From Squalus acanthias (lineage: Eukaryota): a stretch of DNA of 64,000 bases. The notes beneath the pieces were generated by a model that saw nothing but the letters and a program-made list of their open reading frames with translations, was not told where the DNA came from and did no database searches. Shown here piece after piece: positions 976 to 56,980 of this stretch (position 1 is the stretch's first letter; each line of letters begins with the position of its first letter). The translations under genes were made by a program, and so were the position numbers. The stretch is from positions 84,260,001-84,324,000 of the forward strand of contig CM059432.1 in assembly GCA_030390025.1 (NCBI GenBank), given 5' to 3'.

Positions 976-1203
976 TTGTCTCTTAATCTCTCCTGCCTTC
1001 CATCCTATCACAGACCTTCTCTTTTGTTCTTTCCTCCCCTCCCCCCTTTCCCTGCCCCTGCACTTGCTTAAAAACCTGTTCCATCTCCAGCTTTTTCCAG
1101 TTCTGACGAAGAGTCATCGACTTGAAACGTTAACTCTGTTTCTCTCTCCAGAGATGCTGCCTGACCTGCTGAGTATTTCCAGCATTTTCTGTTTTTATTT
1201 CAG
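976..1203 (+). mobile_element. Short Penelope-derived insertion (3' pseudo-LTR segment)
   Basis: Closely similar to 38865-39093, the tail of the Penelope element. Interrupts the Harbinger Myb gene between CCCATC and AGCCTTC, judged against the copy near 14380. Confidence 0.85.
1099..1135 (+). ncRNA. Minimal type I hammerhead ribozyme motif
   Basis: AGTT-CTGACGA-AGAGTC ATC GACTT-GAAA-CGTT-AACT: CUGANGA and GAAA cores, stem II hairpin, stem I AGTT/AACT. Confidence 0.75.
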
Positions 1204-2442: not shown

Positions 2443-2576
2443 CAATGTTCCCCTTAATTTTTTTTATGGGTGCACGTCCCCTTTAAGGGACTGTGTGGCC
2501 CATTCACAGTTTTGCACTTATCAACATTGAAAAAGCCGGTCCTGGGCTGTGCGGGACCGGCAAATAGGGAATGTTG
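2443..2576. mobile_element. hAT-type MITE
   Basis: Termini CAATGTTCCC...GGGAATGTTG with a perfect 8-bp TSD CTGCTGAT (2435-2442 / 2577-2584). Confidence 0.85.
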
Positions 2577-3096
2577 CTGCTGATGTGTGCAGCCAATGAA
2601 CAGCGTGGGGAGCGCTGGCTGCATGCAGCAAACATGGAAATGAGCAGGCAGCATGAAGTTGGCGTCCTGCCTGCATTGCAATCAACGGGCACGGGTTAAT
2701 TGCGATCCCGGTGCCCGTTTTCAGGGGTTATTCAATTTAAACCCCCTAGTATCCACAGTGGAATTTAAATTTCAAAGGTACAGTTTTACTAATGCAGTCG
2801 ATCACAGCATAATCGATTGCATTAAGGAAACAACCATATTTGAAAATGGGCAGGATATTCACTTTTTAAAAAATCTTGGGCTTGGTCTGCGAGCTAAACT
2901 ATGCTGCGGCAAAGCATCACCGTGATTTTTATCCCCACCTCCATCTGAGGTAAATGGGTCAGGGTAAGAGCACAACCAATGGGTGGAATTCCCATCCACT
3001 GTGTTTCTGCTGCCATTGCAGCTTCCTGGGAATTTCTAGGCCAGAGTAAGGTATTTTTTGCCTCCTACCAGCACTGATGCTGAGGGTGTAAAATCA

Positions 3097-4478
3097 CATA
3101 GAATCATAGAATAGTACAGCACAGAAAGAGGCCATTCATCCCATCGAGTCTGTGCTGGCTCTTTCAGAAAGCAATCCAGTTAATCTCACTCCCCCGCTCT
3201 TTCCCCATATCCCTGCAATTATTTCTCCTTCAAGTAATTATCCAATTCCCCTTTGAAGACTACTATTGAATCTGTATCCATCATGCTGCTACTGCTCCTT
3301 TTATCCCATGGGTTTCAATTTTGCAAACAAGCCTAGTATGTGGTGCTGCCTTTTGAAAGTCCATATACACAACATCAACTACACTGCCCTCATCCACCTT
3401 CCCCGTTACCTCATTAAAAAACTCAATCAAGTTAGTCAAACACGATTTGCCCTTAACAAATCCAGGCTGGCTCTCCTTTATTAGTCCATGCTTGTCCAAG
3501 TGGCTGTTAATTTTCTCCCAGATTATTGTTTCTAAAAGCTTCCCCACCACCGGCGCTAAACTGACTGGCCTGTAATTGCCAGGTTTATCCTTCTCCCTTT
3601 TTTGAACAAGGGTGTAATATTTGCAATCCTCCAGTCCTTTGGCACCATCCCTGTATCTAAGGAAGATTGGAAGACTGGAAGATTGTGGCCAGCACCTCCA
3701 TAATTTCTACCCTTGGATGCATCCCATCTGGACCGGGTGACTTATCCACTTTAATTACTACCAGCCTTTCCAGTACCTTCTCTTTATCTATTTTTATCTC
3801 ATCCAATATCCTTGTTTACCATAGCTTTGGCAAAGTCTTCTTCCTTGGTAAACACCGATGCAAAGTACTCATTTAGTACCTCAGCTATGCCTTCTGCCTC
3901 TACCAATAGTTCTCCATTTGGTCCCTAATCTGCCCCACCACTCCTCTGACAACTCTTTTACTGTTAATATGCCTATAAAAGACCTTTGGATTCCCCTTTA
4001 TGTTAGTCACCAATCTATTCTCATACTGCCTCTTTGCCCCTCTTATTTCCTTTTTCACTTCTCCTCTGTACTTTTTATATTCAGCCTGATACTCCCTTGT
4101 ATTATCAAGCTGATATCTGTCATATGCCCCTTGTTCTGGTTCATCCTACTCTCTAACTTCTTCATCATCCAGGGAGCTCTGGCTTTCCCTTTCCCCCTTG
4201 TAGAAATGTACCTAGACTGTACCCGAACCAGCTCCTCTTTAAAGGCTGCCCCTTGCTCCATTACATTTTTGCCTGCTAGTCTTTGACTCCAATTTACCCG
4301 GGCTAGATCCCTCCTCAATTTGCTGAAATTTGCCCTCCTCCAGTTTTTTTATTCTAGATGCTCCTTGTCTTCTCCATAACTAATCTTAACATTACGATAT
4401 TATGATCACTGTTCCTGAAATGCTCTCCAACTGTGACATTCTCCACTTGACCCACTTCATTCCGCAGGACTAGATCCA
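3097..4478 (-). mobile_element. CR1 LINE fragment, internally deleted
   Basis: ORF2 remnants (VGKLLETII...KSCLTNLIEFF..VDVVYMDFQKA; DLARVNW) and a 3' microsatellite tail (CATAGAAT)n on the + strand. Confidence 0.85.
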
Positions 4479-5353: not shown

Positions 5354-6825
5354 AAAAGCACACTATAATCAATCAGGGTAAATAATGCTGCCTATACCTC
5401 GTTGCATTATGGAAGCTTGATATTTTGATTTTTCACAGGCTTTCCCTAAAAGCTTTGCATTTTGACAAATATTGTTCTCATTAAACTCAACTGCATCTTA
5501 AATAGTGCAAAGATTACACTTGCGCAGAGGCGACCACTGTGGAAATGTGTGCAGCCAATGTCAACAGTTTACTTCATGTGTTTTAATACAACCAGCTGTT
5601 TGAATATGTGTGATCTAATCCAGCTTACTTGTAAAAGCTTCATAAACCTGTTGCTCTCTTCTTAGCAGTAACAAAACACATAGTGCATAGAGTTTATTTT
5701 CTTTCATAGTAAGTTTTCAAGGTCATTGTTCTGCTTAAGGAGCCATGTTTGTTGGTTTTGGCCCACACCATCCCACACCCCTCCCCCACCTCCGCTTCCC
5801 TGAAGCTAAGTTATCCTCAGGCACTAATACATGTGCATTAACTGACTGCAATGCAGTTCATTCAGCACTTTAGCTCTGGTGAAATTTGGCTGTGTAACTT
5901 CCTGGCTGGAGGTTGCATCTGTCCTAGTTGACTTAGAATAAGCAACAAAAGAATATGCTTCTTCATTATAAATTTAAACCATAGCACATGCCTATTTAAC
6001 AATGCAATGTTGATCTAGGTTTTCCCATGTGTAAAAGCAAACTCTGACCTTTTGAGTACTTTGAGTATTTTATTAGCAGTTTTCAAAATATAATAGACCC
6101 ACTGTATCATATTGTTTTTAGTAACCATACAAAAAGCTATTATGGGACAGAAAGTAATAGACAAGATGCTTATATACTTTCTGTTAATGAGGGCTGTAAA
6201 CTGTGTCCTATTAAACATCATGGTTTATCAAAAAGTCATGGTGTGGTCTTCTAAAATCTAATTTTCTGTGATAACATGACTACACTGGTCCATAAAATTC
6301 TAATGTTTAATATTATGAAGGACAATTGGAGGAATTTGTGTGATTATAGTATGTCTATTCTGTTACTTTGTTGCTTGATAATTATAAAATTGTAGGTTTG
6401 TTATATTTTATTTTGTGGCAAAGTTACTTTTTACAAGGTTTGAGTCTCTGGTGGACTATATACTAAGGGGGAAAAATTAGGTCGCGCCCCGTTTGGGGCG
6501 CAAATATCGTCTGGACGCAAATATTAGCGCCTGGCGCTAATTATCGCCACTGACTGGAAACTTCACTTTTAGCGCCCCGGGAGGTGAGTGGAGCGCTAAA
6601 TCAGGCGCTGCACACGTGTCTTAAGGCGCAAAGGCCGAGCAGTGAGGCGCTAACTCAGAGCGCGAGCGCAGCGCAGCTGCTGCCAGTTAGCGAGGGAACA
6701 CAGACACACTGGCGCCGGCCACTTCTTAAAGCGGGGGGGGCCAACTTGCTCCCCAGCCACACCCTGCTCATTGCAGCCTTGAATCTCGGCCTGGAGAGAC
6801 CTGTGAATCCATTTTGCTGCCAAGG

Positions 6826-8591
6826 ATGGAGAGGGTGAGAGAACGAGCTCATCGCTTCACCGAGCGGGCCTTGGATGCTCTGGTTGGCGCGGTGGAGCGC
6901 AGAAGATCTATACTCTTCCCTGAGAGTGGCAGGAGGCCTTTGCCACGCGAGTACAGAAGAGTGTGGAGGGAGGTGGCTCAGAGCGTCTCCTCCAGGAGCA
7001 TGGTGCCCAGGACCCATGTTCAATGCCGCAAAAAGTTCAACGACCTCACTCGGGTCGTCAGGGTGAGTGGCTTTTTCTCAATACCTCTCCATCCCTCCAT
7101 CTCAACCTCACTCTATGGCCAGAGGGTCTTAAAACCCCAATGCACAACACTCATCCAACATCTATGGCCCTTTCATGAAACACACACACACATTCCACAC
7201 TTTGCATACAGTAAGGGCTATTCACCTATGGGAGGCACATCAGGCAAGACCATGGCTGTATATTTACTCAGATGCTGTCCTTTTTCTTACAGGCCAAGCT
7301 GGCGCATAATCGGAGACAGCAGCAACGGACAGGTGGAGGGCGGCCTCAGCTGCAACCCCTCAGCGATCTTGAGGAGCGCGTCCACAGGATTGTGGCAAGC
7401 CGGGTGATCGGTCCCGTCGCCACTGGAGACGCCGACCCCGTTCTGGACAGCAATGGTAAGGTCATCACCTTTTTGTCCTCTGTCCTTCCACTTGTCCCTC
7501 ACAACACCAGCCTTTGACACTTTCAATCCAACTTGCTAACTCGCTGCACTTATTCCTCCCTTACTGCCACCCTGTCCTCACGCTAAAGCCACTCTTGTAC
7601 CTCCCTGCTTTCAGATGGTGATTCACCAGCTGAGAAGACGGGCCCTGAAGCTGCCACTGGGAGTGAAGCTGCAGCCGAGGAGGAAGAGGAAGCCGGAGCA
7701 TCAGTGCCACCCTCTCCCGAGGAAGCCCATGCCCACACTGGGAACACGCCTTCCCTGGAGGGGAGCAGGGGGGAAGGGTCTGATGAGGGTGAAGCTCCAG
7801 GACCCAGCGGGCTGCAGCAACGCCATGGGGGTAGGGAAGAACGGGGGCCTTCTCCCCAGAGGGAGAGTATGCCAGAGACTCCTACTGCAATGGACGCAGA
7901 GGAGGAGCGGCTGAACGCAGAAATGAACACCCAGGCAGTGGGCATGCACACTGAGCTCATGGGTGCAGTGGGAAGGGTGCCCGAATGCACTGAATCACTG
8001 GCAAGGAGTGTGGAGCACTTCGCTGTAGCACAGGCGGATGCCACACTAACGCTTAGTGCTGCAATTCAGTCACTGGCTGCCGTGATCCCATCTCTGACTG
8101 CTCTCATGCAGACTCAGATTGAGGCCACGCGAGCACAGACTGCTGCCAACCTCGATGGTTCGTTCACATGTCCCCGGGGCTCTCACCGCGCCGCAGCAGG
8201 CCAGCAATCTGTTCTCCAGCAGATTGCTCCGGATGCTGAAGTGCTGCCCCGTGGGAGTGCCAGTGTGTCGGGCGAGCAGGGAGTTGCTGTCCTCTCTCAC
8301 GATGACAGCATTCCTGCTGCCAACACTGTCACTTCTCCACTGCACTTGCCACCGCCTGTAGGACAGACTGCTGCCGCCCATGCAGAGTTGGTGCAGTCTG
8401 CAGCTGGGCCCTCCAGGCCCAGAACTGGTCGAGGCCGTCCTTCAGGGGCATCTGCAGTGTCAGGGTCTGACGATCAGCAGCCTTCCACCAGCCTTGCTGC
8501 AGCCACTGAGGTCCCATTACGGAGGAGCAGTAGGGTTAGAAGGGGGGAAGTGCGCAAGGGAAGGAGATCACCCTCGAAGGGCAAAAAGTAG
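6826..8591 (+). CDS. Myb/SANT-like (trihelix, NAIF1-like) DNA-binding protein of Harbinger; exons 6826-7062, 7293-7455, 7615-8591; 458 aa
   Basis: RFTERALDALV...WREVA..V..RT..QCRKKFNDL motif. Canonical splice sites GTGAGT/TTACAG (phase 0) and GTAAG/TTTCAG (phase 1) join into one open frame to the TAG at 8589-8591. Confidence 0.88.
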
Positions 8592-15600: not shown

Positions 15601-17406
15601 CCACCCTTTGGTTTGCCGTGGTGGCTCAAATGCAGCTGGGACAGCAGACTACTGCAGAGTGAAGGCATCATGACTGCTGCCAGGATACCAGGCACTGACC
15701 TGCATGATTCGCTGCCTATGGTCACACACCAGCTGGACATTGAGGCAGTAGAATCCCTTTTGGTTCTGGTAAATGGCAGAGATAACATGCGGCGCCCGCA
15801 AAGCGATGTGTGTGTAATCAATGACACCCTGCACCATAGGGAAGCCTGAAATCCTAGCAAAGTCTTGTGCTCGCTCCGCCTGCTGGACTCTGGCAAGAGG
15901 GAATGAAATGTAGTTTGCTCTCTTTGAATAGGGAGCCTCAGTGACCTCCCTTACGTAACAGTGGATGGCAAACTGTGAGATGTTGCAAATATCTCTAGCT
16001 CCAGCCTGGAAGGATCCAGACACAAAAAAGTTGATTACCACGGTCACCTTCACAGCCACTGGCAATACGGTCCTTGTCCTACTCTGAGGTTGCAGTTGTG
16101 GCTGCAGCAGGTGGCAGATTTCAGTGAGAACATCCTTATTGAAGTGCAGACGTCTCACACATTGTTCCTCGCTGAGGTTCAGGTAGGAGAATTGCTCCCT
16201 GAACAGCCTGGGCAGATATGGCCTCCTGCTAAGAGCCCTTCTCCCCCTCCTCCTCCCGCTTCTAGCCGCTTGTCCTGCTCTGGATGACTTCTGCTCATTC
16301 TCCTAGTCTACTGTAATCCAAGGGGAATTCCGACTACTGCACCCATGTCTGGGAGCAACTGGTTTGTGCAGAATCCTTGAAGTCAGGAAAAATTCCTTCA
16401 GCACCTGCCACACCACTCCCTGTAGACTTTGGCAACTTCAAAGAACTATGGAAAGCATGAAACCCTTATACAATTGTAGCAACAGCCAGAAGAAATCAAT
16501 CAACAACTAACCTGTAAGTAGTTGATGATCCCTTTTAATAGCACTGGTGGGGGGTCCTTCCTGCTGCTTAACGCATGTTCAGCTGTGCGAGGATAAGAGT
16601 GGGCGTTGAACTCCAAAATGGCACCCCTGTCATCAAATCAGCATTACACGCTGATTGATGTCATGATCTGCCGACTCTGCATACTTCTGGAGTACGTTAG
16701 CTGTGAGTGTGCTAACGCCCTCACCAATATGGCGTCTGGCACAATTCATGGCAGAAGTGTGCATGTGCACATCATACATCATTTTGGTCCCCGAACGGCA
16801 CCCGTAGCACCCAAATAACAGGTGCTTCTGAGCCCAATTTCCCACCACCAGAGTTTAAACCAGGAAGTATAAAGCAGGAAGTATAAATTAGATTTAAATC
16901 ATGAACAGAAAGAAAAATAAAGATTGAGAAAGATAGATGGGAGTAAGTGAGAGAGATAAAAGAGTCAGGCAGAAAAAGTAAAAAAAAGTAATTTTAATTT
17001 TAAAAAAAATCTCCAACACTAATTAACTTCTGAAGGAATTAATCTCCGCACTTGCAAAATTTAATTTTCAGGGCCAGAGAGGTTGTTTGGCAGTAATTAT
17101 CACTTACCCCCCGTTAAAAATTCACTTAATACTGAATGCACCAACCCTAACTTTTTCTGGCATGTTTAGTCGGTAACTAGTGGATCCGTACTCCAACTTC
17201 ACGCTGTTGCATGTATTTAAATGCTGAGTCAATCGACTAGGTTCTGTTATAGCATAGCCTGTGGAGGAGCAGGGTAACTCAGAATACAACTTCTGGATTT
17301 CCACGTTTAACTGCACATGTGCGTACTCCGGAAGTTGCTGTCCAATTTACTCCATAGTAACGGTGAGCACTGTTACCCTCACCGTTATTAATACAAAATC
17401 CAGGCC
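12698..17406. mobile_element. Harbinger-type MITE (~790 bp) hosting a nested Harbinger
   Basis: TIR GGCCTGGATTTTG / CAAAATCCAGGCC, TSD AAT (12695-12697 / 17407-17409). Sister copy at 17786-18437. Confidence 0.85.
12921..16846. mobile_element. Full-length but decayed Harbinger (Myb-like gene + at ~13246-15039; transposase - at ~15212-16346)
   Basis: Ends GGGGGCTAAATTGG / CCAATTTCCCACC. Motifs FRKKFNDLT, GVIDYTHIALRAP and SHDAFTL are present, with multiple frameshifts. Confidence 0.9.
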
Positions 17407-18465: not shown

Positions 18466-21400
18466 TTTGTTTTTATTCGCTTATGGGATCTGGGTGTCGC
18501 TGGCAAGGCCAGCATTTATTGCCTATCCCTAGCTGCCCTTGAGAAGGTGGTGGTGAGCCGCCTTCTTGAACCGCTGCAGTCCATGTGGTGAAGGTACTCC
18601 CACAGTGCTGTTAGGTAAGGAGTTCCAGGATTTTGACCCAGCGACGATGAAGGATCGGTGATATACTTCTAAGTCAGGATGGTGTGTGACTTGGAGGGGA
18701 ACTTGGAGGTGGTGGTGTTCCCATGTGTCTGCTGCCCTTGTCCTTCTAGGTGGAAGAGGTCGCGGGTTTGGGAGGTGCTGTCGAAGAAACCTTGGCGAGT
18801 TGCTGCAGTGCATCTTGTTGATGGAACACACTGCAGCCATGGTACACCGGTGGAGGGAGTGAATGTTTAAGGTGGTGGATGGGGTGCCAATCAAGTGGGC
18901 TGCTTTGTCTGGGATGGTGTCGAGCTTCTTGAGTTCCTGACTTGTGCATTGTAGATGGTGGAAAGGCTTTGGGGAGTCAGGAGGTGAGACACTCGCTGCA
19001 GAATACCTAGCCTCTGACCTGCTCTTGTTGCCACAGTATTTATATGGCTGGTCCAGTTAAGTTTCTGGTCAATGGTGACCCCCAGGATGTTGATGGTGGG
19101 GGATTCAGCGATGGTAATGCCATTGAATGTCAAGGGAAGGTGGTTAGACTCTCGTTTGTTGGAGGTAGTCATTGCCTGGCACTTCTGTGGCATGAATGTT
19201 ACCTGCCACTTAATCAGCCCTAAGCCTGAACGTCGTCCAGGTCTTGTTGCATGCATGCATGGACTGCTTCATTATCTGAGGAGTTGTGAATGGTGCTGAA
19301 CACTGTGCAGTCATCAGCGAACATCCCCATTTCTGACCTTATGTTGGGGGTAAGGTCATTGATGAAGCAGCTGAAGATGGTTGGGCCTAGGACACTGCCC
19401 TGAGGAACTACTGCAGCGATGTTTGACCTTCAGCCACCACAACCATCTTCCTTTGTGCTAGGTATGACTCAAGCCAGTGGAGCGTTTTCCCCGATTCCCA
19501 TTGACTTCAGTTTTACTAGGGCTCCTTGATGCCAGACTCGGTCAAATGCTGCCTTGATGTCAAGGACAGTCACTCTCACCTCACCTCTGGAATTCAGCTC
19601 CTTTGTCCATGTTTGGACCAAGGCTGTAATGAGGTCGGGAGCCGAGTGATCTTGGCGGAACCCAAACTGGGTATCACTGAGCAGGTGCCGCTTGATATCA
19701 CTGTCGATGACACCTTCCATCATTTTGTTGATGATTCAGAGTAGACTGATGGGGTGGTAATTGGCCAGGTTGGATTTGTCCTGCTTTTTGTGGACAGGAC
19801 TTACCTGGGCAGTTTTCCACATTGTCGAATAGATGCCAGTGTTGTAGCTGTACTGGAATAGCTTGGCTGGAGACACGGCTAGTTCTGGAGCACAAGTCTT
19901 CAGCACGATAGCAGGGATGTTGTCGGGGCCCATAGCCTTTGCTGTCTCCAGTGCGCTCAGCTGTTTCTTGTTATCACGTGGAGTGAATTGAATTGGCTGA
20001 AGACTGGCTTCTGTGATGGTGGGGACCTCAGGAGGAGGCCGATAGGGATCATCCACTTGGCACTTCTGGCTGAAGATGCTTCAGCCTTGTCTTTTACACT
20101 CACGTGATGGGCTCCACCATCATTGGGGATATTCATGGCGCCTCCTCCTCCGGTTAGTTGTTTAATGGTCCACCACCATTCACGACTGCAGAGCTTTGAT
20201 CTGATCCGTTGATTGTGGGATCGCTTAGCCTTGTCTATAGCATGCTGCTTCCGCTTTTTCGCATGCATGCATGTAGTCCTGTGTTGCAGCTTCCCCAGGT
20301 TGGCACCTCAGTTTTAGGTACACCTGGTGCTGCTCCTGGCATGATCTTCTACACTCCTTATTGAACCAGGGTTGGTCCCCTGGCTTGGTGGTAATGGTAA
20401 AGTGAGGGATATGCCGGGCCATGAGGTTACAGACTGTGGTGGAATACAATTCTGCTGCCCCACAGCACCTCATGGACGGCCAGTTTTGAGCTGCTAGATC
20501 TGTTCTGAATCTATCCACTCAACACGATGGAGGGTGTCTTCAGTGTGAAGACAGGACTTCATCTCCACAATGACTGTGCGGTGGTCACTGCTACCAATGC
20601 TGTCATGGACAGATGCATCTGCGACAGGTAGATTGGTGAGGACGAGGTCAAGTAGGTTTTCCCTCATGTTGGTTGTCGCAGGCACCAGACTTACAGTTAT
20701 GTCCTTCATAGTGGTGCTACCAAGCCACTTTTTGAAGTCTCCCACCCAGAGTACATTCTGTGCCCTTGCTACTCTCGGTGCTTCTTCCAAGTGGTGTTCA
20801 ACATGGAGGAGTACTGATGCATCAGCTGAGGGAGGGCAGTAGGTGGTAATCAGCAGGAGGTTTCCTTGCCCATTCTTGACCTGAAGCCATGAGACCTCAT
20901 GGGGTCCGGAGTCAATGTTGAGGACTCCCAGGGCCACTCCTTCCCAACTGTATACCACTGTGCCACCACCCCTGGTGATGGTGAGTTTGGGAACATTGGC
21001 TGAAAGGTATGATTCTGTCTATGTCAGGCTGTTGCTTGACTAGTCTGTGGGACAATTCTTGTGCACAAGTCCCCAGATGTTGGTGAGGAGGACTTTACAG
21101 TGTTGACTGGGCTGGGCATGCGTTGCCATGTCCATAGCCAGGTTGTCCATCCAGTTTCAATGTTACAACTGAGTGGCTTGCTAGGCCATTTCAGAGGGCA
21201 GTTAAGAGTCACCCACATTGCTGTGGGTCTGGAGTCACATATAGGTCAGACCAGGTAAGGACAGCAGATTTCCCTTTAGGACATTAGTGAACCAGATGGG
21301 TTTTTACGACAATCTGATAGTTTTATGGTTACTAGCTTTTTATTCCAGATTTATTTAATTAACTGTATTTAAATTTCCCGGCTGCCATGGTTGGGATTTG

Positions 21401-21478
21401 AACTCATATCTCTAGATCATTAAGTCAAGGCCTCTGGATTACTAGCCCAGTGACATTACCACTACACTACCGTACCCA
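18466..21478 (-). mobile_element. Full-length tRNA-headed single-ORF LINE (APE endonuclease + RT; CR1/L2/Jockey-like group), decayed copy
   Basis: tRNA-like head, then EN (KVLLTNIWGL..WVGDF..DLVLTN..SDH) and RT (QFGFR..LDIKAAFDRVWH..PQGSVLGP..FADD), and a 3' tail with AATAAA and GAATAAAAA. No ORF1. Confidence 0.9.
21394..21478 (-). promoter_or_regulatory. tRNA-derived internal Pol III promoter
   Basis: A box TAGTGTAGTGG (21469-21459) and B box GTTCAAATCC (21403-21394) on the - strand. Confidence 0.85.
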
Positions 21479-23952: not shown

Positions 23953-24079
23953 GATATCTTTAGTGTCACAGAGACATGATGGAATGATTCCACAATGGGA
24001 TACATATCTGGAAGTATTTAAATTGTTTTGAAGAAACCGTATCAGGAGAAAAGTAGGCAGTGTGACAATATATATAAAC

Positions 24080-25326
24080 ATCAGTGAAGAGCCCCACCTC
24101 TGACCTTATGATGGAGGAAAGGTCACTGATGAAACAGGTGAAGATAGTTGGGTCTAAGACGCTGCCCTGAGGAACTCCTGAAGCGATGTCCTGGCAGTGA
24201 AATGAATGGCCTCCAATGATCAAAACCATCTTCCTTTGTGTTAGGTATGACTCCAGCCAGTGGAGAGTTTTCCCCCCGATTCCCATTGACTTCAATTTTA
24301 CTAGGGCTCTTTAATGCCACACTCGGTCAAATGCTGTCTTGATGTCAAGGGCAGTCACTCTCACCTCACCTCTGGAATTCAGCTCTTTTATCCATGTTTG
24401 GACCAAGGCTGTAATGAGGTCTGGAGCCGAGTGATCCTGGCAGAACCCAAACTGAGCATCGGTGAGCTGGTTATTGGTAAGTGCCTCTTGATAGCACTGT
24501 CGCTGACACCTTCCATCACTTTGCTGGTGATTGAGAGTAGAGTGATGGGGCGGTAATTGGCCGAATTGGATTTGTCCTATTTTTTGTGGACAGGATACAC
24601 CTGGGCAATTTTCCACATTGTCGGGTAAATGCCAGTGTTTTTGCTGTACTGCAACAGCTTGGCTAAAGGTGCAGCTAGTTCTGGAGCACAAGTCTTCACC
24701 ACGACAGCCGGGATATTGTCAACGCCCATAGCCTTTGCTGTATGCAGTGCACTCAGCCGTTTCTTGATATCACGTGGAGTGAATCGAATTGGCTGAAGAC
24801 TGGCTTCTGTGATGGTGGGGACCTCAGGAGGAGGCCGAGATGGATCATCCACTTGGCACTTCTGGCTGGAAATGGTTGCAAACGCTTCAGCCTTGTCTTT
24901 TGAACTCACATGCTGGGCTCTGCCATCATTGAGGATGAGGATGTTCATGGAGCCTCCTCCTCCAGTTAGTTGTTTAATTGTCCACCACGATTCACAACTG
25001 GATGTGGCAGGACTGCAGCGCTTTGATCTGATCCGTTGATTGTGGGATCACTTAGCTCTGTCTATAGCACGCTATTTCCGCTGTTTAGCATGTATGTAGT
25101 CCTGTGTTGTAGCTTCACCAGGTCGACACTTCATTTTTAGGTACACCTGGTGCTGCTCCTGGCATGATCTTTTACACTCCTCATTGAACCAGGGTTGGTC
25201 CCCTGGCTTGATGGTAATGGTAGAGTGAGGGATATGCCGGGGCATGAGGTTACAGATTGTGGTGGAATACAACTCTGCTGCTGCTGCTGCCCCACTGCGC
25301 CTCATGGATGCCCAGTTTTGAACTGC
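24080..25326 (-). mobile_element. Internal fragment of the tRNA-headed LINE family
   Basis: Collinear with ~19310-20490 (TCAPELAAPLAKL; GVPQGSVLDP). Confidence 0.9.
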
Positions 25327-32329: not shown

Positions 32330-34970
32330 TTTTATGTGGCCGCAGACGTGACTCCAGGATGGTATGCTGCCTCCCTGGTGCCAAGGTCAAGGATGTCATT
32401 GAGCGGCTGCAGGACATTCTGAAGGGGGAGGGTGAACAGCCAGAGGTCGTGGTCCATATCAGTACCAACGACATAGGTAGAAAGAGGGATGAGGTCACAG
32501 AATCACAGAAATCACAGAATCCCCACAGTGCAGATAGAGGCCATTTCGGCCCATCGAGCCTGCACCGACACATATCCCACCCTATCCCCGTAACCCCATG
32601 TATTTAATCCCCCTAACACTAAGGGTCAATTTATCATAGCCAAATCAACCTAACCCGCACATCTTTGGACTGTGGGAGGAAACCGGAGCACCCGGAGGAA
32701 ACCCACACAGACACGGGGAGAATGTGCAAACTCCACACAGACAGTCACCCGTGGCCGGATTCGAACCCGGGTCCTTGGCGCTGTGAGGCAACAGTGCTAA
32801 CCACTATGCCAACGTGTTGTCCTGCAAGAAGAATATAGGGAGCTAGGAAATAAATTAAAAAGCAGGACGTTAAAGGTAGTAATCTCAGGATTACTCCCAG
32901 TGCCACGTGCTAGTGAGAGCAGAAATAGGAGAATAGACCAGATGAATGCGTGGCTGGAGAGATGTTGTAGGAGGGAGGGATTTAAATTCCTGAGGCATTG
33001 GGACCGATTCTGGGGAAGGTGGGACCTGTACAAGCTGGACGGATTACACCTCGGCAGAACCAGGACCAATATCCTCGCAGGGGGGGTTTGCTAATGCTGT
33101 TGGGAAGGATTGACTGGGAACCTAAGTGTGGGCCCAGAATGGAGAGAAACAAAGCTGGAAGTGCAAGTTAGAAAAGTAGTCAGCAAAACTAGTAGGGAGC
33201 AGAAACAAAGGCCAACAGTAAAGAGGGTCAAAATGCAGAAAAATATTAAACAGGCAAAGTTGAAGGCACTTTATCTAAATGCACGTAGCATTCGCAACAA
33301 GGTGGATGAATTTATGGCACAAATAGAAGTAAATGGGTATGATGTAATTGCCATTACAGACACATGGTTGCAGGGTAACCAAAGCTGGGAACTGAATGTT
33401 CCAGGGTACTCAACATTTAGGAAGGACAGACAAAAAGGAAAAGGAGGTGGCATAGCGCTGTTAATAAGGGATGAGATCGGTACGGTAGAGATAAAAGATC
33501 TTGGCTCGGCAGATCGTGATGTAGAACTGGAATCAGTTTGGGTGGAGCTAAGAAACAGCAAAGGGCGGAAAACATTGGTGAGAGTTGTGTATTGGCCACC
33601 AAACAGTAGTGGTAACGTAGGGCACAGTATCAATCAAGAAATTAGAAGTGCATGTAACAAGGGCAATACGGTAATCATGGGGGACTTTAATCTACATTTT
33701 GACTGGGCAAATCAAATTACCACTAATGGTGTAGAGGACGAATTCTTGGAATGCATGCGAGATGGTTTCCTGGATCAGTATGTGGAGGAACCACCAGGGA
33801 ACAGGCTATTCTGGATCTGGTACTGTGTAATGAGAAAGGTCTAATCAATAATCTTGTGGTAAAGGGGCCTTTAGGGACAAGTGACCATAATATGATTGAA
33901 TTTTACATTAAGTTTGAGAGTGATGGAGTCCAATCTGAAACTAAGGTCTTCAATCTAAACTGAGGAAACTACAAGGGTATGAGGGACAAGTTGGCCATGG
34001 TAGATTGGGAGACTACACTAAAAGGTATGAAGGTGGACATACAATGGCTAACATTCAAGGAAATAATGCATAAGTTGCAACAAACATATATTCCTCCACG
34101 GCATAAAAACCCAAAAGGAAAGGTGATCCAACTATGGCTAACAAAAGAAATTAAAGCTAGTATTAAGTCAAAGGAGGAAGCTTATAAAGTTGCCAGAAAA
34201 AGTGGTCAACCTGAGGATTGGGATCTTTTTAGAAATCAGCAAAGGGGGAACCAAGAAATTGATAAAGAAAGGGAAAATGGAATATGAGCACAAGCTAGCG
34301 AAAAATATAAAAACGGATTGTAAAAGCTTCTATAGGTATGTGAAAAGGAAAAGACTGGCGAAGGTAAATGCAGGTCCTTTAAAGTCAGAGACGGGAGCAT
34401 TTATAATGGGGAATGAGGAAATGGCAGAGAAATTAAATAAATACTTTGTTTCTGTCTTTACGGAGGAAGACACAATAAACCACCCAGAAATACGAGAAAA
34501 CTAAGGGTGTGGCGAGAATGAGGAACTTAAAGAAATTATTATTAGTTAAAAAAAAACAGTACTAGCAAAATTAATGGGACTAAAAGTCGATAAATCCCAA
34601 GGACCGGATGACCTACATCCTACGGTTTTGAAAGAGGTGTCCATTGGGATAGTGGACACATTGGTTGTTATCTTCCAAAATTCTATAGATTCTGGAACGG
34701 TTCCTGCAGATTGGAGGACAGCAAATGTAACCCCGCTATTTAAGAAAGGAGGGAGAGAGAAAATGGGGAACTACAGACCTGTTAGCCTCACATCAGTAGT
34801 TGGGAAAATGCTGGAATCTATTAGAAAGGATGCAATAACTGGGCACTTAGAAACTAATAGTAAGATTGGGCAGAGTCAACATGGATTTATGAAAAGGAAA
34901 TCCTGTTTGACAAACCTATTGGAGTTCTTTAAGGATGTAACTAGTGGAGTAGACAAAGGGGAACCAGTGG
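32330..34970 (+). mobile_element. CR1 LINE (ORF1 esterase part, EN, N-terminal RT), 3'-truncated
   Basis: VCCLPGAKVKDV..GTND-like and DGLHL (SGNH esterase); YLNARSI..DTW..MGDFN..SDHN; RT up to GEPV. Confidence 0.92.
32497..32818 (-). mobile_element. HE1-type tRNA-derived V-SINE inserted in CR1 ORF1
   Basis: tRNA head with B box GGTTCGAATCC, V-domain TGTGGGTTTCCTCCGGGTGCTCCGGTTTCCTCCCACA and a (TTCTGTGA)-like tail. GTC is duplicated at the flanks. Confidence 0.88.
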
Positions 34971-37563
34971 GAGTGGTCTACAGGCCCCCAAACAGTATCC
35001 ACACTGTAAGACAGGGAATAAATCAAGAAATAATAGAGGCTTGTAAGAAAGGTACAGCTATAATCATGGGAGATTTTAATTTTCATATTGATTAGACAAA
35101 GCAAAGGTAGACTTGAGGAAGAGTTCTTAGAGTGTATACGGGATGGTTTCTTGGAACAATATGTTGTGGAACCAACCAGGGAGAAGACTATTTTAGATCT
35201 GGTAATGTGTAACGAGGCTGGATTAATTAATGATCTCGAAGTGAAGGATCCACTTGGGAAGAGTGATCATAGCATGGTAGAATTTCAAATTCAGTTTGAG
35301 GGTGAGAAAGCTAGGTCTCAAACTAGTGTCCTGAACTTAAACAAAGGTAATTACAAAGGTATGAAGGCAGACTTGGTTAAAGTGGACTGGGAAAATATAT
35401 TAAAGGGTAAGACTGTAGAAAAGCAGTGGCAAACATTTAAGGAGATATTTCATAACTCTCAGCAAAGATATATTCCAGTGAGAAAGAAAGACTCTAAGAG
35501 AAGGATAAACCATCCGTGGCTAACTAAGGAAGTAAAGGATGGTATCAAATTGAAAACAAAAGCATACAATGTTGCGAAGAATAGTGAAAGGCCAGAGGAT
35601 TGGGAAATTTTTAAAAACCAGCAAAGGACGACTAAAAAAATGATAAAGGGAGAGAAGACAGCTTCTGAGAGTAAGCTAGCAAGAAATATAAAAACAGACA
35701 GTAAGAGCTTCTACAGGTATATAAAAAGGAAGAGAGTAGCTAAAGTAAACGTTGGTCCCCTGGAGGATGAGTCTGGGGAATTAATAATGGGAAACAGGGA
35801 AATGGCGGAGACTTTGAACAAATATTTTGTATCGGTCTTCACGGTAGAAGACACTAAAAGCATCCCAATAATGGATAATCAAGGGGCTATTGGGGGTGCG
35901 GGGCGGGGGGAGATCTTAAAACAATCACTATCACTAGAGAAAAAGTACTAGGCAAACTAATGGGACTAAAGGTGGACAAGTCCCCTGGACCCGATGGCCT
36001 GCATCCTAGAGTCTTAAAAGAGGTGGCTGCAGAGATAGTGGATGCATTGGTTGTAATCTACCAAAATTCCCTGGATTCTGGAGAGGTCCCAGCGGACTGG
36101 AAAACCGCAAATGTAACGCCCCTATTTAAGAAAGGAGGGAGACAGAAAGCAGGCAACTATCGACCAGTTAGCCTAACATCTGTCAATGGGAAAATGCTGG
36201 AGTCCATCATTAAGGAAGTGATAGCAGGACATTTAGAAAATCATAATATAGTCAAGCAGAGCTAGCACGGTTTTATGAAAGGGAAATGATGTTTGACAAA
36301 TTTGCTGGAGATCTTTGAGGATGTAACGAGCAGGGTGGATAAAGGGAAACCAGTAGATGTTGTGTATTTGGATTTCCAGAAGGCATTTGATAAGGTGCCA
36401 CATAAAAGGTTACTACACAGGATAAGAGCTCACGGGGTTGGGGGTAGTATATTAGCATGGATAGAGGATTGGCTAACTAACAGAAAACAGAGAATCGGGA
36501 TAAATGGGTCATTTTCAGGTTGGCAAACTATAACTAGTGGGGTGCCGCAGGGATCAGTGCTGGGGCCTCAACTATTTACAATCTATATTAATGACTTGGA
36601 TGAAGGGACTGAATGTAATGTAGCCAAATTTGCTGATGATACAAAGATAGGTGGGAAAGCAAATTGTGTGGAGGACGCAAAGAATTGCCAAAGGAATATA
36701 GATAGGCTAAGTGAGTGGGCAAAAATCTGGCAGATGGAGTTTAATGTGGGAAAATGTGAGGTTATCCACTTTGGTAGGAAAAATACAAAAGCAAATTATT
36801 ATTTAAATGGGGAGAGATTACAAAATGCTGAGGTACAGAGGGATCTGGGGATCCTTGTACATGAATCACAAAAGGTTAGCATGCAGGTACAGCAAGTAAT
36901 TAGGAAGGCAAATGGAATGTTAGCCTTTATTGCAAAGGGAATGGAGTATAAAAGTAGGGAAGTCCTGTTACAACTGTACAGGGCGTTGGTGAGACCACAC
37001 CTGGAGTACTGTGTACAGTTTTGGTCTCCTTATTTAAGGAAGGATATACTTGCATTGGAGGCAGTTCAGAGAAGGCTCATGAGGTTGATTCCGGAGATGA
37101 AGGGGTTGTCTTATGAAGAAAGGTTGAGCAGGTTGGGCCTATACTCATTGGAGTTTAGAAGAATGAGAGTGGATCTTATTGAAACATATAAGATTCTAAA
37201 GGGGCTTGACAGGGTAGATGCAGAGAGGATGTTTCCCCTCGTGGGGGAATCTAGAACTAGGGGGCATAATTTCAGAATAAGGGGAAACCCTTTTAAATCG
37301 GAAATGAGGAGCAATTTCTTCTCTCAGAGGGTCGTGAAACTTTGGGATTCTCTTCCCCAGAGAGCTGTGGAGGCTGGGTCATTGAATATATTTAAGGTGG
37401 AGATAAACAGATTTTTGAACGATAAGGGAGTCAAGGGTTATGGGGAGCGGGCAGGGAAGTGGAGTTGAGGCCAAGATCAGATCAGCCATGATCTTATTGA
37501 ATGGTGGAGCAGGCTCGAGGGGCCAAATGACCTACTCCTGCTCCTACATCTTATGTTCTTATG
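34970..37563 (+). mobile_element. Second CR1 LINE, 5'-truncated in EN, complete RT and 3' tail
   Basis: ORFs 35088-35951, 35960-36265 and 36293-37468 (FADD motif); 3' UTR ending TCTTATGTTCTTATG. Confidence 0.95.
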
Positions 37564-37598
37564 GCCTCAGCACACAGATTTACCAATGTCTGAGGCAA

Positions 37599-49724: not shown

Positions 49725-49726
49725 TA

Positions 49727-50016
49727 GAGTCTTGGACTAATGATCTGGAGACATGAGTTCAAATCCAACCACAGCAGCTGGGAAATTTAAATTCAGTTAA
49801 TTAAATAAATCTGGAACCCATCCGGTTTACTCATGTCCTTTAAGGAAGGAAATCTGCTGTCCTTACCTGGTCTGGCCTATATGTGACTCGATACTCACAG
49901 CAATATTGTTTAATCTTAACTGCCCTCTGGAATGGCCCAGCAAGCCACTCAGATATATCAAAGGGCAATTAGGGATGGGCAAAACGCCCACATCCTGTGA
50001 ATGAATAAAAGAAAAG
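49727..50016 (+). mobile_element. tRNA-derived SINE composed of the head and tail of the tRNA-headed LINE
   Basis: B box GAGTTCAAATCC (49755-49766). Body homologous to 21170-21440 and tail homologous to 18470-18540. Confidence 0.88.
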
Positions 50017-51096: not shown

Positions 51097-53848
51097 TTAG
51101 GGAGGGAGTTCCAGGATTTTGACCCAGCGACGATGAACGAACTGTAATATATTTCCAAGTCAGGATGATGTGTGATCTGGAGGGGAACTTGAAGGTGATG
51201 GTGTTGCCATGCGCCTACTGCCCTTGTCCATCTTGGCAGTAGAGGTCGCGGGTTTGGGAGGTGCTGTCGAAGAAGCCTTGGCGAGTTGCTGCAGTGCATC
51301 TTGTAGATGGTGCAAACTGCAGCCCCGGTGAGCCAGTGGTGGAAGGAGTCAACATTTAACATGGTGGATGGGGTGCCAATCAAGCGGGCTGCTTTGTCCT
51401 GGATGGTGTCGAGCTTCTTGAGTGTTGTTGGAGCTGCACTCATCCAAGCAAGTGGAGAGTATTCCATCACACTCCTGACTTGTGTCTTGTAGATGGTGGA
51501 AAGGCTTTGGGGAGACAGGAGGTGAGACACTCGCCGCAGAATACCCAGCCCCTGACCTGCTCTTGTAGCCACAGTATTTATGTGGCTGGTCCAGTTAAAT
51601 TTTTGGTTAATGGTTACCCCCAGGATGTTGATGGTGGGGATTCGGCGATGGTAATGCCGTTGAAAATCAAGGGGCAGTGGTTAGATTCTCTCTCGTTGGA
51701 GATAGTAATTGCTGGCACTTGTGTGGCACAAATGTTACTTGCCACTTAGCAGCCCAAGCCTGAATGTTGTCCAGGTCTTGCTGCAAGCGGGCATGAACTG
51801 CTTCATTATCTGGGGAGTTGCAAATGGAACTGAACACTGTGCAATCATCAGCAAATGTCCCTACTTCTGACCTTATGATGGAGGGAAAGTCATTGATGAA
51901 GCAGCTGAAGATGGTTGGGCCTAGAATACTGCCCTGAGGAAGTCCTGCAGTGATGATCTGAGGCATAGATGATTGGCCTCCAACAACCATAACCATCTTC
52001 CTTTGTGCTAGGTATGATTCCAGCTAGTGGAGAGTTTTCCCCGATTCCAATTGACTTCATTTTTATTAGGGCTCCTTGATGCCACAGTTGATCAAATGCT
52101 GCCTTGATCTCAAGGGCAGTCACTCTCACTTCACCTCTGGAATTCAGCTCTTTTTTCCATGTTTGGACCAAGGCTGTAATGAGGTCTGAAGCAGAGCGGA
52201 TCTGGCAGAAACCAAACTGAGCATTAGTGAGCAGGTTATTGGTAAGTGCCACTTGATAGCACTGTTGACGACACCTTCCATCACTTTGCTGATGATTGAG
52301 AGTAGACTGATGGGGCGGCAATTGGCTGGATTGGATTTGTCCTGCTTTTTGTGGACAGGACATACCTGGGCAATTTTCCACTTTGTTGGGTAGATATAAG
52401 TGTTGTCACTGTACTGGAACAGCTTGGCTAGAGGTGAAACTAGTTCTAGAGCACAAATCTTCAGCACAGCAGCCAGGATGTTGTCGGGCCCATAGCCTTT
52501 GCTGTATGCAGTGCGATCAGCTTTTTCTTGATGTCAGGTGGAGTGAATCAAATTGGCTGAAGACTGGTTTCTGTGATGGTGAGGACCTCAGGAGGAAGCT
52601 GAGATGGATCATCCACTCGGCACTTCTGGCTGAAGATGGCTGTGAACGCTTCAGCCTTGTCTTTTGCACTCATGGGCTCTGCCATCATGGAGGATGGAGA
52701 GGTTCATGGAGCCTCCTCCTCCCGTTCGTTGTTTAATTGTCCACCACCATTCACGACTGGATGTGGTACGACTGCAGAGCTTTGATCTGATCCGTTGGTT
52801 GTGGGATTGCTTAGTTCTGTCTATAGCATGCTGCTTCCGCTATTTAGCATGTATGTAGTCCTGTTTTGTAGCTTCAGCAGGTTGACAACTCATTTTTAGG
52901 TATGCCTGGTGCTGCTCCTGGCATGCTCTTCTACACTTCTCATTGAAACAGGATTGGTACCCTTGCTTGATGATAATGGTAGAGATGAGGATATGCTGGC
53001 CCATGAGGTTACAGATTATGCTAGAATACAATTCTGCTGCTGGTGATGGCCCACAGCGCCTCATGGATGCCCAGTTTTGAGCTGCTAAACCTGTTATGAA
53101 TCTATCCCATTTAGCACCGTGGTAGTGCCACACAACACGATGGAGAGTGTCCTCAGTGTGAAGACAGGAATTCATCTCCACAAGGACCGTGCGGTGGTCA
53201 CTCCTACCAATACTGTCATGGACAGATGCACCTGCGACAGGTAGATTGGTGAGAATGAGGTGGAGTAGGTTTTTCGCTTGTGTTGTTTCTCCCACCACCT
53301 GCCGCAGGCCCAGTCTGGCAGCTATGTCCTTCAGGACTCAGCCAGCTTGGTCAGTAGTGGTGCTACCAAGCCACTCTTGGTATTGGACATTGAAGTCCCC
53401 CACCCAGAGTACGTTCTGTACCCTTGCTACCTTCAGTGCTTCTTCCAAGTGGTGTTCAACATGGAGGAGTACTGATTCATCAGCTGAGGGAAGGTGGTAG
53501 CAGGAGTTTCCTTGCCCATGTTTGACCTGATGCCATGAGACTTCCGGAGTCAATGTTGAGGACTCCCAGGCAATGTTCCCCCTAATTTTTTTTTGGGTGC
53601 AACTTTTTAAGGGGCTGTGCGGCTCATTCAGTTTTACGTATGCACGAAACTAAACATTGAAAAAGCCGGTCCTGGGCTGTGCGGGACTGGCAGAGAGCTG
53701 CGCGGCTGCGCGGCACAGCTTAGAGGGAATGTTGCTTCCCAGGCCACTCCATCCAGACTGTATACCACTGTGCCGCCACCTCTGGTGGGTCTGTCCTGCC
53801 AGCAGGTCAGGACATACCCAGGGATTGTGATGGAGGAGTCTGGGACAG
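51097..53848 (-). mobile_element. Long copy of the tRNA-headed LINE family, both ends missing
   Basis: EN (VPDSSITIPGY..WVGDFN..SDH) through RT (GTFADD) and C-terminus. Confidence 0.92.
53571..53734. mobile_element. hAT-type MITE, same family as 2443-2576
   Basis: CAATGTTCCC...GGGAATGTTG; near-perfect TSD CTCCCAGG / CTTCCCAGG. Confidence 0.85.
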
Positions 53849-53849
53849 T

Positions 53850-54260
53850 GGGCATTGAATCTGCTTCCACCACCCTTTCAGGCAGTGCATTCCAGATCAC
53901 AACAACTCGCAGTGTTAAAAATGTTTCCTCATGTCTCCTCTGGTTCTTTTGCCAATCACCTGAAATCTGTGCCTTCTGGTTATTGACCCTTCTACCACTG
54001 GAAACAATTTCTCCTTATTTACTCTATCAAAACCATTCATGAACTTGAGCGCCTCTATCAAATCTCCTCTTAACCTTTTCTGTTCAAAGCTTCTCCAGTC
54101 TCTCCATATAACTGAAGTCCCTCATCCCTAGTAACATTCTAGTAAATCTCTTCTGCACCCTCTCTAAGGTCTTGATATACTTACAAAAATATGGTATCCA
54201 GAATTGGCCACAATACTCCAACAGAGGCTCAACTAGTGTTTTATAAAAGTTTAGCATAAC
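53850..54260 (-). mobile_element. CR1 3' fragment
   Basis: LEYCGQFW..LERVQKRFTRM and IWNALPERVVEA. Confidence 0.8.
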
Positions 54261-54440: not shown

Positions 54441-56980
54441 CTTTTTTTAAATTCATTCATGGGATGTGGGCGTCGCTGGCAAGGCTAGCATTTATTGCCC
54501 ACCCCTAATTGCCCTTGAGAAGGTGGTGGTGACCTGCCTTCATGAACCGCTGCAGTCTGAGAGGTGAAGGTACTCCCACAGTGCTGTTAGGGAGGGAGTT
54601 CCAGGATTTTGACCCAGTGACGATGAAGGAATGGCGATATATTTCCAAGTCAGGACGGTGTGTGACTTGGAGGGGAACTTGCAAGTGGTGGTGTTCCCAT
54701 GCGCCTGCTGCCCTTGTCCTTCTAGATGGTTTGGAAGGCGCTGTCGAAGAAGTCTTGGCGAGTTGCTGCAGTGCATCTTGTAGATGGTACACACTGCAGA
54801 CATGGTGTGCCAGTGGTGGAGAGGGTGAATGTTTAAGGTGGTAGATGAGGTGCCAATCAAGCAAGCTGCTTCATCCTGGATGGTGTCGAGCTTCTTGAGT
54901 GTTGTTGGAGCTGCACTCATCCAGGCAAGTGGAGAGTGTACCATCACACTCTTGACTTGTGTCTTGTGAAAAGACTTTGGGGAGTCAGGAGGTGAGTAAC
55001 TCGCTGCAGAATATCCAGCCTCTGACCTGCTCTTGTAGCCACAGTATTTATGTGGCTGGTCCAGTTAAGTTTCTGGTCAATGGTGACCCCCCCAGGATGT
55101 TGATGGTGGGGGTTTCGGCAATGGTAATCTCATTGAATGTCAAGGAGCAGTGGCTAGACTCTCTCTTGTTGGAGATGGTCATTGCCTGGCACTTGTATGG
55201 CGCGAATGTTACTTGCCCAAGCCTGAATGTTTTCCAAGTCTTGCTGCATGCGGGCATGAACTGCTTCATTATCTGAGGAGTTGCAAATGGAACTGAACAC
55301 TGCAATCATCAGCGTGGCAGGCAGTGACTAGTGGGGTACCGCAGGGATCGGTGCTCGGACCCCCGTTATTCACAATATATATTAATGATCTAAACGAGGG
55401 AACTAGATGTAATATCTCCAAGTTTACAGACAACACAAAGCTGGGTGGGCGTGTGTGCTGTGAGGAGGATGCAGAGAAACTCCAGTATGATTTGGACAGG
55501 TTGGGTGATTGGGCAGATGCATGGCAGATGCAGTATAATGTGGATAAATGCGAGGTTATCCACTTTGGTGGCAAAAACAGGAAGGCAGATTATTATCTGA
55601 ACGGCAATAGATTGGGAAAAGGGGAAGTGCAACGAGACCTGGGTGTCCTTGTGCACCAGTCGCTGAAGGTAAGCATGCAGGTGCAGCAGGCGGTTAAGAA
55701 GGCAAATGGTATGTTGGCCTTCATAGCGAGAGGATTCGAGTACAGGATCAAGGATGTCTTGCTGCAGTTGTACAGGGCCTTGGTGAGACCACACCTTGAG
55801 TATTGTGTGCAGTTTTGGTCGCCTTATCTGAGGAAGGATGTTTTTGTCATGGAGAGAGTGCAGCGAAGATTCACCAGACTGATACCTGGGATGGCAGGAA
55901 TGACGTATGAAGAGAGATTGGGTCGATTGGGCTTGTATTCGCTAGAGTTTAGAAGAATGAGAGGGGATCTCATTGAAACTTATAAAATTCTAACAGGACT
56001 AGACAGACTAGATGCAGGAAGGATGTTCCCGATGGTGGGAGAGTCCAGAACCAGGGGTCACAGTCTAAGGATAAGGGGTAAGCCATTTAGGACTAAGATG
56101 AGGAGGAATTTCTTCACCCAGAGAGTGGTGAACCTGTGGAATTCTCTACCACAGAAGACAGTTGAGTCCAATTTATTAAATATATTCAAGAAGGAGTTAG
56201 ATATATTTCTTAAGGCTAACGGGATCAAGGGATATGGGGAGAAAGTAGGTACTGAATTTGGATGATCAGCCATGATCGCATTGAATGGCAGAGCAGGCTC
56301 AAGGGGCCGAATGGCCTACTCCTGCTCCTATCTTCTATGTTTCTATGAACATCCCCACTTCTGACCTTATGATGGAGGGAAGGTCATTGATGAAGCAGGT
56401 TGAAGATGGTTGGGCCTAGGACACTGCCCTGAGGCACTCCTGCAGCAATGTCCTGGGGCGTTGGTCCAAACATGGACAAAAGAGCTGAATTCCAGAGGTG
56501 AGGTGAGAGTGACTGCCCTTGAAAACAAGACAGCATTTGACCGAGTGTGGCATCAAGGAGCCCTAGTAAAAATGAAGTCAATTGGAATCAGGGGGAAAAC
56601 TCTCCACTGACTGGAGCCATACCTAGCACAAAGGAAGATAGTTGTGGTTGCCCAACCTCTGGAATTCAGCTCTTTTGTCCATGTTTGGACCAACGCTATA
56701 ATGAGGTCTGGTGCAGAATGGTCCTAGCGGAACCCAAACTTAGCACAGTGAGTAGGTTTTTGATGAGTATGTGCTGTTTAATAGCACTGTCGCCGACACC
56801 TTCCTTCACTTTGCTAATGATTGAGAGTAGGCTGATGGGATGGTAATTGGCCGGATTGGATTTGTCCAGCTTTCTGTGGACAGGACATACCTGGACAATT
56901 TTACACTTTGTCGGGTAGATGCTCGTGTAGTAGTTGTACTGGAACAGCTTGGCTAGAAGTGTGGCTAGTTCTGGAGCACT
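54441..56980 (-). mobile_element. 5'-truncated copy of the tRNA-headed LINE family, with CR1 insertion and internal inversion
   Basis: Intact 3' tail at 54441-54520. RT split at FADD by a CR1, and segment 56458-56650 is inverted. Confidence 0.9.
55315..56346 (+). mobile_element. Young 5'-truncated CR1, open RT C-terminal frame 55324-56265
   Basis: GVPQGSVLGP..RPHLEYCVQFW; tail TTCTATGTTTCTAT. Confidence 0.95.

Follow-up and report, generated by a model that had tools for sequence, protein, structure and literature searches.

A tRNA-Thr-like head and a sense strand depleted in clustered T mark elasmobranch Zenon LINEs as candidate Pol III-transcribed retrotransposons

Introduction

The working divide between LINEs and SINEs sets elements that use Pol II and encode protein against elements that use Pol III and are non-coding. 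The closest described relatives of the element analysed here are the Zenon elements, which have been reported from elasmobranchs, coelacanth and hagfish, lack an ORF1 and end in a poly(A) tail that is stated to be unique to Zenon among CR1-group elements (Stuart et al. 2026, PMC13343379). According to the same paper, elasmobranch Zenon is so far absent from repeat repositories. Lepidopteran Zenon and its internal-deletion derivative Persaeus are described as single-ORF, poly(A)-tailed elements with short forms that join a 5' end to a 3' end, as in the present family, but Persaeus, unlike the SINE-sized shark forms, is stated to have no homology to tRNA, 5S or 7S and no Pol III promoter (PMC6740152).

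Bov-tA, CoeSINE4 and SINE2-1_ACar, tRNA-SINEs on bipartite RTE or Vingi LINEs, also combine a tRNA head and a Pol III promoter with LINE parts; in SINEs of the Bov-tA type, however, the head sits on a non-coding deletion product, and SINEs are stated to be unable to encode protein, whereas in shark Zenon the head sits on a coding LINE (PMC5786205). SacSINE1 and the CmiSINEs of cartilaginous fish are tRNA-headed SINEs of the same animals, and their description, with Deu or CORE bodies and L2 tails, may set them apart from the Zenon SINE form (PMC5499810). Another parallel is offered by R2 and L1Tc, single-ORF non-LTR elements whose uncapped RNA is described as translated via the leader, in R2 supposedly through an IRES-like one, as we propose for Zenon. 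An HDV-like ribozyme releases their RNAs from Pol I or polycistronic transcripts, whereas in Zenon we found no such ribozyme and an internal promoter of tRNA type (PMC6765202).

Here, we analysed a window of 64,000 nucleotides from Squalus acanthias (GCA_030390025.1, contig CM059432.1, positions 84,260,001 to 84,324,000), in which a sequence-only reading had proposed a LINE with a tRNA-derived head as a candidate autonomous retrotransposon transcribed by Pol III. The literature searched, which excludes Repbase, Dfam and most subscription journals, yielded no description of a coding LINE with a Pol III head, and a literature search with four DNA motifs found no paper.

Results

The window holds one full-length copy of the family, several partial ones and a SINE-sized form, with the following features (positions are those of the window; T4 stands for a run of four or more T):

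18466..21477, minus strand: decayed full-length elasmobranch Zenon LINE, aligned to nt 1-3284 of the family majority sequence
21381..21477, minus strand: head, tRNA-Thr(AGT)-derived as judged by ARAGORN and alignment to host tRNA-Thr, in which an anticodon-like arm is duplicated between the A and B boxes
21459..21469, minus strand: A box TAGTGTAGTGG, from the sequence; aligns with the A-box region of host tRNA-Thr
21394..21403, minus strand: B box GTTCAAATCC, from the sequence; aligns with the T-loop of host tRNA-Thr
21163..21293, minus strand: conserved non-coding leader domain (majority nt ~195-330)
20589..21096, minus strand: APE endonuclease (EN) domain, broken in this copy (motif mapping; weak PF14529)
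19085..19939, minus strand: reverse transcriptase (RT) domain, broken in this copy (Pfam RVT_1 on two pieces; motifs QGSVLGP and FADD)
18466..18531, minus strand: short 3' UTR stem-loop and A tail of ~10 nt, common to LINE and SINE forms
24079..25326, minus strand: internal family fragment (blastn 90%; 1 sense T4)
51097..53851, minus strand: 5'-truncated family copy (blastn 89%; 2 sense T4)
54442..55314, minus strand: 3' family fragment (blastn 88%; 1 sense T4)
49726..50012, plus strand: SINE form, made of partial head and leader fused directly to the 3' tail of the LINE
32330-37563: CR1, with 15 sense T4 runs

The order of parts in the full-length copy is tRNA-like head, leader, APE, RT, 3' stem-loop and A tail. 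As the earlier reading had described, the head on the minus strand carries both boxes, and the leader runs straight into the EN, whose first motif, KVLLTNIWGL, begins ~380 nt from the start of the copy with no ORF1 and no SINE tail in between. The family element measures ~3.28 kb, ends in an A-rich tract of ~10 nt and has a 3' stem-loop with a folding z of -2.87 against dinucleotide shuffles. Its single EN-RT frame retains intact catalytic motifs in the majority, and both PF03372 and PF14529 exceed the Pfam cut-off in a better-preserved copy. The window copy itself differs from the majority by 127 mismatches, 22 deletions (282 nt) and 7 small insertions. Because of these deletions and insertions it is dead and cannot be autonomous; the proposal of an autonomous element fails for this copy, and what follows applies to the family. 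Decay of family copies genome-wide, this one included, is unusually rich in deletions relative to substitutions.

Other sequences in the window include an older relative of the family at 44230-45060 (+), 73% identical over the RT, with ordinary numbers of T-rich windows (6 against 6.3 expected) and no closer family among its top matches, which reach only 72-74%. Rearranged family fragments lie at 56347-56983, with an inverted piece at 56458-56648. Frames with DDE_Tnp_4 and Myb/SANT matches, typical of Harbinger-type transposons, occur at 15652-16302 (-) and 6730-7404 (+). The frame at 37419-38665 (+), directly after the CR1, has no Pfam match, and we presume from its resemblance that it is related to the C-terminal part of a Penelope-like element.

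The family has the features of Zenon: no ORF1, a poly(A) tail, and APE and RT in one frame. It departs from canonical vertebrate CR1 in having no esterase-type ORF1 and an RT only 28-29% identical to the CR1 frames of the window, and in a quick RT tree of 70 rows, none of them a named Zenon, it falls in a 53-row clade (support 98) apart from those CR1s. A feature of Vingi elements is a C-terminal zinc finger; the majority protein has no CxxC, and thus no zinc finger of this type. Like a tRNA-derived SINE (SINE2), the element has a head with A and B boxes, but at 3.28 kb and with an EN-RT frame it is neither short nor non-coding, which only its short deletion forms are. Protein relatives are 33-45% identical and mostly 900-1000 residues long on contigs of 3-4.5 kb, the few named ones being from amphioxus and crab. 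We take the labels SquAca, CarCar, ScyCan, RhiTyp and HypSab of the published Zenon-1 consensus sequences to stand for dogfish, white shark, catshark, whale shark and stingray, respectively.

Compared by eye, the leader majority of our family agrees with the first 400 nt of SquAca_Zenon-1, and the same head begins the first 400 nt of CarCar, ScyCan, RhiTyp and HypSab Zenon-1 (PMC13343379, supplement). By these 400 nt, the window element is assigned to the catalogued elasmobranch Zenon, with which it shares the leader start, a length of 3.2-3.3 kb, the lack of ORF1, the A tail and invertebrate nearest relatives (PMC13343379). The LINE itself is therefore already catalogued, and what is added here is its Pol III-type anatomy: in the parts of that paper considered, the head, terminator avoidance, AUG-less frame and SINE forms are undescribed, and its main text contains no occurrence of tRNA, Pol III or polymerase III. 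By eye, the A-box core is present in all five elasmobranch starts and a canonical B box in three, TTTT occurs in none of them (first 400 nt), and in the extra arm dogfish differs from white shark or catshark on both sides; the corresponding first 400 nt of two hagfish and one coelacanth Zenon have T runs and no head (PMC13343379).

The head is not private to the window copy. A search of the assembly (3.7 Gb) gave 35,941 family candidates at first look. With the whole element as query, 30 loci were recovered, and the 25 of them that span head to tail were aligned; they share a common start point with unrelated flanks. Since such a query selects for the head, copies were also picked with an EN-only query, and the head begins 26 of these 29 other copies: in 23 the alignment comes to within 16 nt of the start and in three more the head start lies beyond a small deletion, while the remaining three are cut inside the leader and have unrelated flanks. 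Conversely, all 29 other top loci found with head plus leader continue into the LINE body, although two of them duplicate each other and this query favours a young subfamily. The 300 nt upstream of 63 head-start copies hold no common sequence, with only 8 pairwise repeat matches, and thus no shared upstream ORF1 or promoter sequence; no convincing target-site duplications were seen among the 25 aligned copies. The prediction that full-length copies start at the tRNA-like head is borne out by these counts, and together with the five published starts they indicate that the head is a real, family-wide feature conserved across sharks and rays. Among 80 loci of metagenome relatives (up to 900 nt upstream, many with little upstream DNA and few of them close), neither a B-box regular expression nor ARAGORN gave a match.

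Several comparisons indicate that the family head is derived from tRNA-Thr(AGT). ARAGORN calls tRNA-Thr(agt) at 21383-21476 on the minus strand, the majority head is identical to a host tRNA-Thr(AGT) gene at 49 of 73 aligned bases, and the alignment score of 50.6 compares with 37 for the highest of 300 shuffles. The Rfam tRNA match to the window head is weak (19.9 bits, below the gathering score of 29). The acceptor stem is gone and the T stem imperfect, a 20-nt insert repeats the anticodon arm, and frequent family variants in the D, anticodon and extra arms preserve pairing. The box starts are 65 nt apart, and the A-B gap quoted for SINEs, 30-40 bp, is shorter (PMC7279448).

The absence of TTTT from the sense strand and the roughly 15 runs on the antisense strand, first noticed by eye, were confirmed by counting: 18466-21478 has no sense run of T>=4 and 16 sense runs of A>=4. 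This contrast is mostly base composition (A 28-29%, T about 19-21%), and the absence of TTTT taken alone is weak because it is not significant against dinucleotide or codon nulls. In the window copy, 4.5 T4 runs are expected under base shuffling (P=0.007) and 1.8 under dinucleotide shuffling (P=0.13); in the family majority, which has none either, as the earlier reading anticipated, the values are 3.9 (P=0.018) and 1.4 (P=0.22), and 1.6 for its frame under synonymous-codon shuffling (P=0.16). Terminators cited for SINEs are T>=4 and TCT>=3 (PMC10572872), and the majority has neither.

Clustered T gives a stronger result. The family majority has a single 5-nt window with at least four T against 11.65 expected, a value reached in none of 2000 shuffles, and the same measure gives observed/expected numbers of 40/39 for A, 51/44 for C and 23/21 for G; pyrimidine runs in the majority are not depleted. 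TT stands at ~0.70-0.71 of expectation and TTT is the most depleted trinucleotide, with 5 in the EN-RT frame against 11.2 under synonymous-codon shuffling (P=0.004). Control frames came from 60 of the 80 metagenome relatives, those with frames of at least 500 codons, and none was as depleted for TT, TTT or T-rich windows: their lowest ratios are 0.86, 0.70 and 0.71, against 0.70, 0.31 and 0.11 in the family. One of the 60 (L109, frame of 912 codons) has no T4 against 6.9 expected and normal T-rich windows; it is a distant relative on the 2A side, and its contig lacks the 5' end of the element. The neighbouring CR1 does have many sense TTTT runs, as had been claimed, and the four CR1 frames of the window are at or above expectation in T-run measures. 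None of 88 non-family 2-kb windows falls below 0.38 of the T-rich expectation (window copy, 1/13.2), and Phe makes up 1.9% of the family protein, below all 84 full-length relatives.

The depletion is also seen within the family, where none of 41 non-CpG subfamily variants creates a T4 or T-rich window and four older-type copies (92-96% ungapped identity) have one T4 in total. Inserted copies regain T runs, at 0.4 T4 per element length over 114 pieces. The other copies in the window had been said to carry about one T4 each, which is correct for 24079-25326 and 54442-55314 and not for 51097-53851, which has two, along with 9 T-rich windows against 14.5 expected. The depletion of clustered T thus strongly exceeds composition and is specific to T, unlike A, C, G, the 60 relatives and the neighbouring CR1; of the original claim of depletion beyond composition, the part that relied on TTTT is partly accounted for by composition and the part that concerns T-rich windows stands.

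Between the head and the EN, nt ~195-330 of the leader are nearly invariant by eye across the five shark and ray starts and nt 95-190 vary (PMC13343379), which makes this 135-nt domain a candidate translation-entry or RNP element. Its folding energy is no better than that of shuffles (z = -0.06), and a search for an HDV-like ribozyme in the leader gave no Rfam match up to E 5 and no match to a loose descriptor. A small pseudoknot considered at the leader end is unsupported, its pairs hardly varying within the genome. From nt 330, where the conserved leader ends, the EN-RT frame runs open for 963 codons, and its first in-frame Met is codon 284. All 9 leader AUGs of the majority are out of frame, and an in-frame AUG is absent from 48 of 54 anchored leaders (14 of 68, without an anchor, were left out). 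In most relatives, a Met stands 7-30 residues before the EN, or a 2A-like peptide is present, although these Met positions are gene-caller starts, some of which could be GTG or TTG. A 2A-like peptide lies just before the endonuclease in many CR1-group frames from marine metagenomes (L061-L140). The 38 codons ahead of the EN are Arg-rich and resemble the basic N-termini of close relatives, and in the young subfamily the end of the leader coincides with a stop codon.

By eye, all five published starts have an out-of-frame AUG at nt 358, and its distance from the leader end is 31 nt in the majority and three of these starts and 30 and 27 in the other two (PMC13343379); with the 31-nt spacer the EN frame stays in register with the leader end. 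We prefer internal non-AUG entry as the probable route of EN-RT translation. Initiation at an AUG followed by a frameshift may be an alternative, since AUG 358 is found in all five published starts. This AUG is altered in two of three older copies, and the idea that it is dispensable is weakened by the same five starts.

For the SINE-sized forms, 20 regions were examined out of 40 scored matches to the short copy of the window. Leader and LINE tail are joined in 15, four are older LINEs with the head and one is ambiguous. The leader breakpoint lies at nt 322-335, the 3' end of the conserved leader domain, and there are at least 5 different tail junctions, the commonest in 7 copies, including that of the window, at a four-base microhomology. 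Between the SINE and LINE leaders, 294 of 312 positions are identical. Like joints occur in contigs of three of four other organisms, and leader-to-EN bridges in two. Repeated deletion of the headed LINE would fit these forms best, although the head itself may have come from an older SINE. The amniote relic MER131 presumably resembles the Zenon leader and tail; it is only called a probable SINE in its description (PMC5753468).

A T>=4 run comes first in the tail in 5 of 36 LINE tails and 5 of 14 SINE tails. Tail T and A lengths are inversely related (Spearman -0.78, n=35) and add up to a nearly constant 10-11, and T(n)A(m) tails occur in many copies (e.g. L172, L182, L051) as well as in unrelated tracts of this genome. 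Pol III termination followed by polyadenylation was rejected as the source of the T runs before the A tail, unrelated T(n)A(m) tracts showing the same spread; given this and the constant sum, the tails are most likely mutational drift after insertion.

Discussion

The results are consistent with a retrotransposon family that combines the promoter type of a SINE with the coding capacity of a LINE. In the mechanism we propose, an elasmobranch Zenon LINE of the CR1 group, with one EN-RT frame and no ORF1, would have gained a tRNA-Thr-derived head with working A and B boxes, and Pol III would transcribe all 3.3 kb starting at this internal promoter, with selection removing oligo-T terminators from the sense strand. 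The uncapped RNA would be translated by internal non-AUG entry near the leader end (majority nt ~330), and the EN-RT protein would bind the 3' stem-loop and use target-primed reverse transcription to insert the RNA. SINE-sized, non-autonomous forms would arise repeatedly through deletions that run from the end of the leader into the 3' tail. Head and T depletion together suggest that Pol III probably makes the full-length family RNA; that the same Pol III-type RNA is translated without a cap seems an even call. As for the combined reading, in which the head drives a full-length Pol III RNA that is translated uncapped through non-AUG entry, we lean modestly towards it. Somewhat more tentative, at a little under even chances, is the fullest version, an autonomous shark and ray LINE that runs on Pol III from end to end and is translated uncapped via the 135-nt leader as a new vertebrate entry element.

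Some precedents bear on these steps. In a human assay, retroelement RNAs made by Pol III were independent of ORF1p (PMC2666806); absence of ORF1 is not special to the headed family, because all Zenons lack it (PMC13343379). A human preprint describes frequent read-through of terminators by Pol III, so strict avoidance of T runs would be less needed (10.1101/2025.10.17.683076). The long A-B spacing, the lost acceptor stem, the T4-free relative L109 and the non-significance of TTTT absence alone are points against the Pol III reading. The unremarkable folding of the leader, its lack of an HDV-like ribozyme in our searches and the stop codon in the young subfamily also weigh against the proposed mechanism.

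One alternative, that a SINE happened to insert ahead of one truncated LINE copy, draws on the fact that a SINE with the same head exists in the S. acanthias genome, but it is refuted by the shared head-LINE junction: head and EN meet without a SINE tail at 63 distinct loci with unrelated flanks, and the same junction is found in older-type copies and the five published starts, which leaves it a negligible probability. An ordinary Pol II LINE deserves more attention. Keno-type LINEs capture U2 pieces, and the head could likewise be a passenger picked up from a SINE or from a tRNA target, or it could serve as a Pol II promoter or insulator; the T-poor strand would then have another cause, such as mutation bias or escape from U-rich RNA surveillance. 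A Pol II promoter is what is expected at the 5' end of a LINE (PMC5786205), and low T content could be compositional. However, the depletion is specific to clustered T and absent from 60 related frames and from CR1 of the same genome, sharks and a ray have retained the A and B boxes, and a capped RNA scanned from nt 1 would first meet the 9 out-of-frame AUGs. We consider this explanation unlikely.

A division of labour explains head and T-run depletion as well as the proposed mechanism does. Pol III would make only the template RNA and the EN-RT would be supplied in trans by capped Pol II RNAs (spliced RNAs or host read-through), so that the element would be a giant SINE carrying an ORF. The great abundance of the family fits this possibility, as does the report that 39% of CR1-Zenon-like LINEs of the whale shark are intronic (10.1101/443036). 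Nevertheless, the EN-RT frame is kept open with its catalytic motifs intact, and the shared differences of older-type copies are most frequent at third codon positions (35 of 74), a sign of selection acting on the very copy that is replicated; a scanning ribosome would also find no in-frame AUG, and no pyrimidine tract precedes the EN. We regard such a division as rather improbable, and uncapped translation of the Pol III RNA remains our preferred reading.

If this reading is true, a tRNA promoter and an EN-RT frame kept as a single unit in sharks and rays alike would break down the divide between LINEs and SINEs, and the family would be an 'autonomous SINE' that breeds its own SINEs, illustrating one route for SINE origin with the head first and the deletion after. 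It would also offer a natural experiment on whether a functional 3-kb mRNA can come from Pol III and how such an RNA is translated. In the search for compact cap-independent translation elements, the conserved leader offers a concrete candidate, and the Pol III and cap-independence predictions are cheap to test in cell lines.
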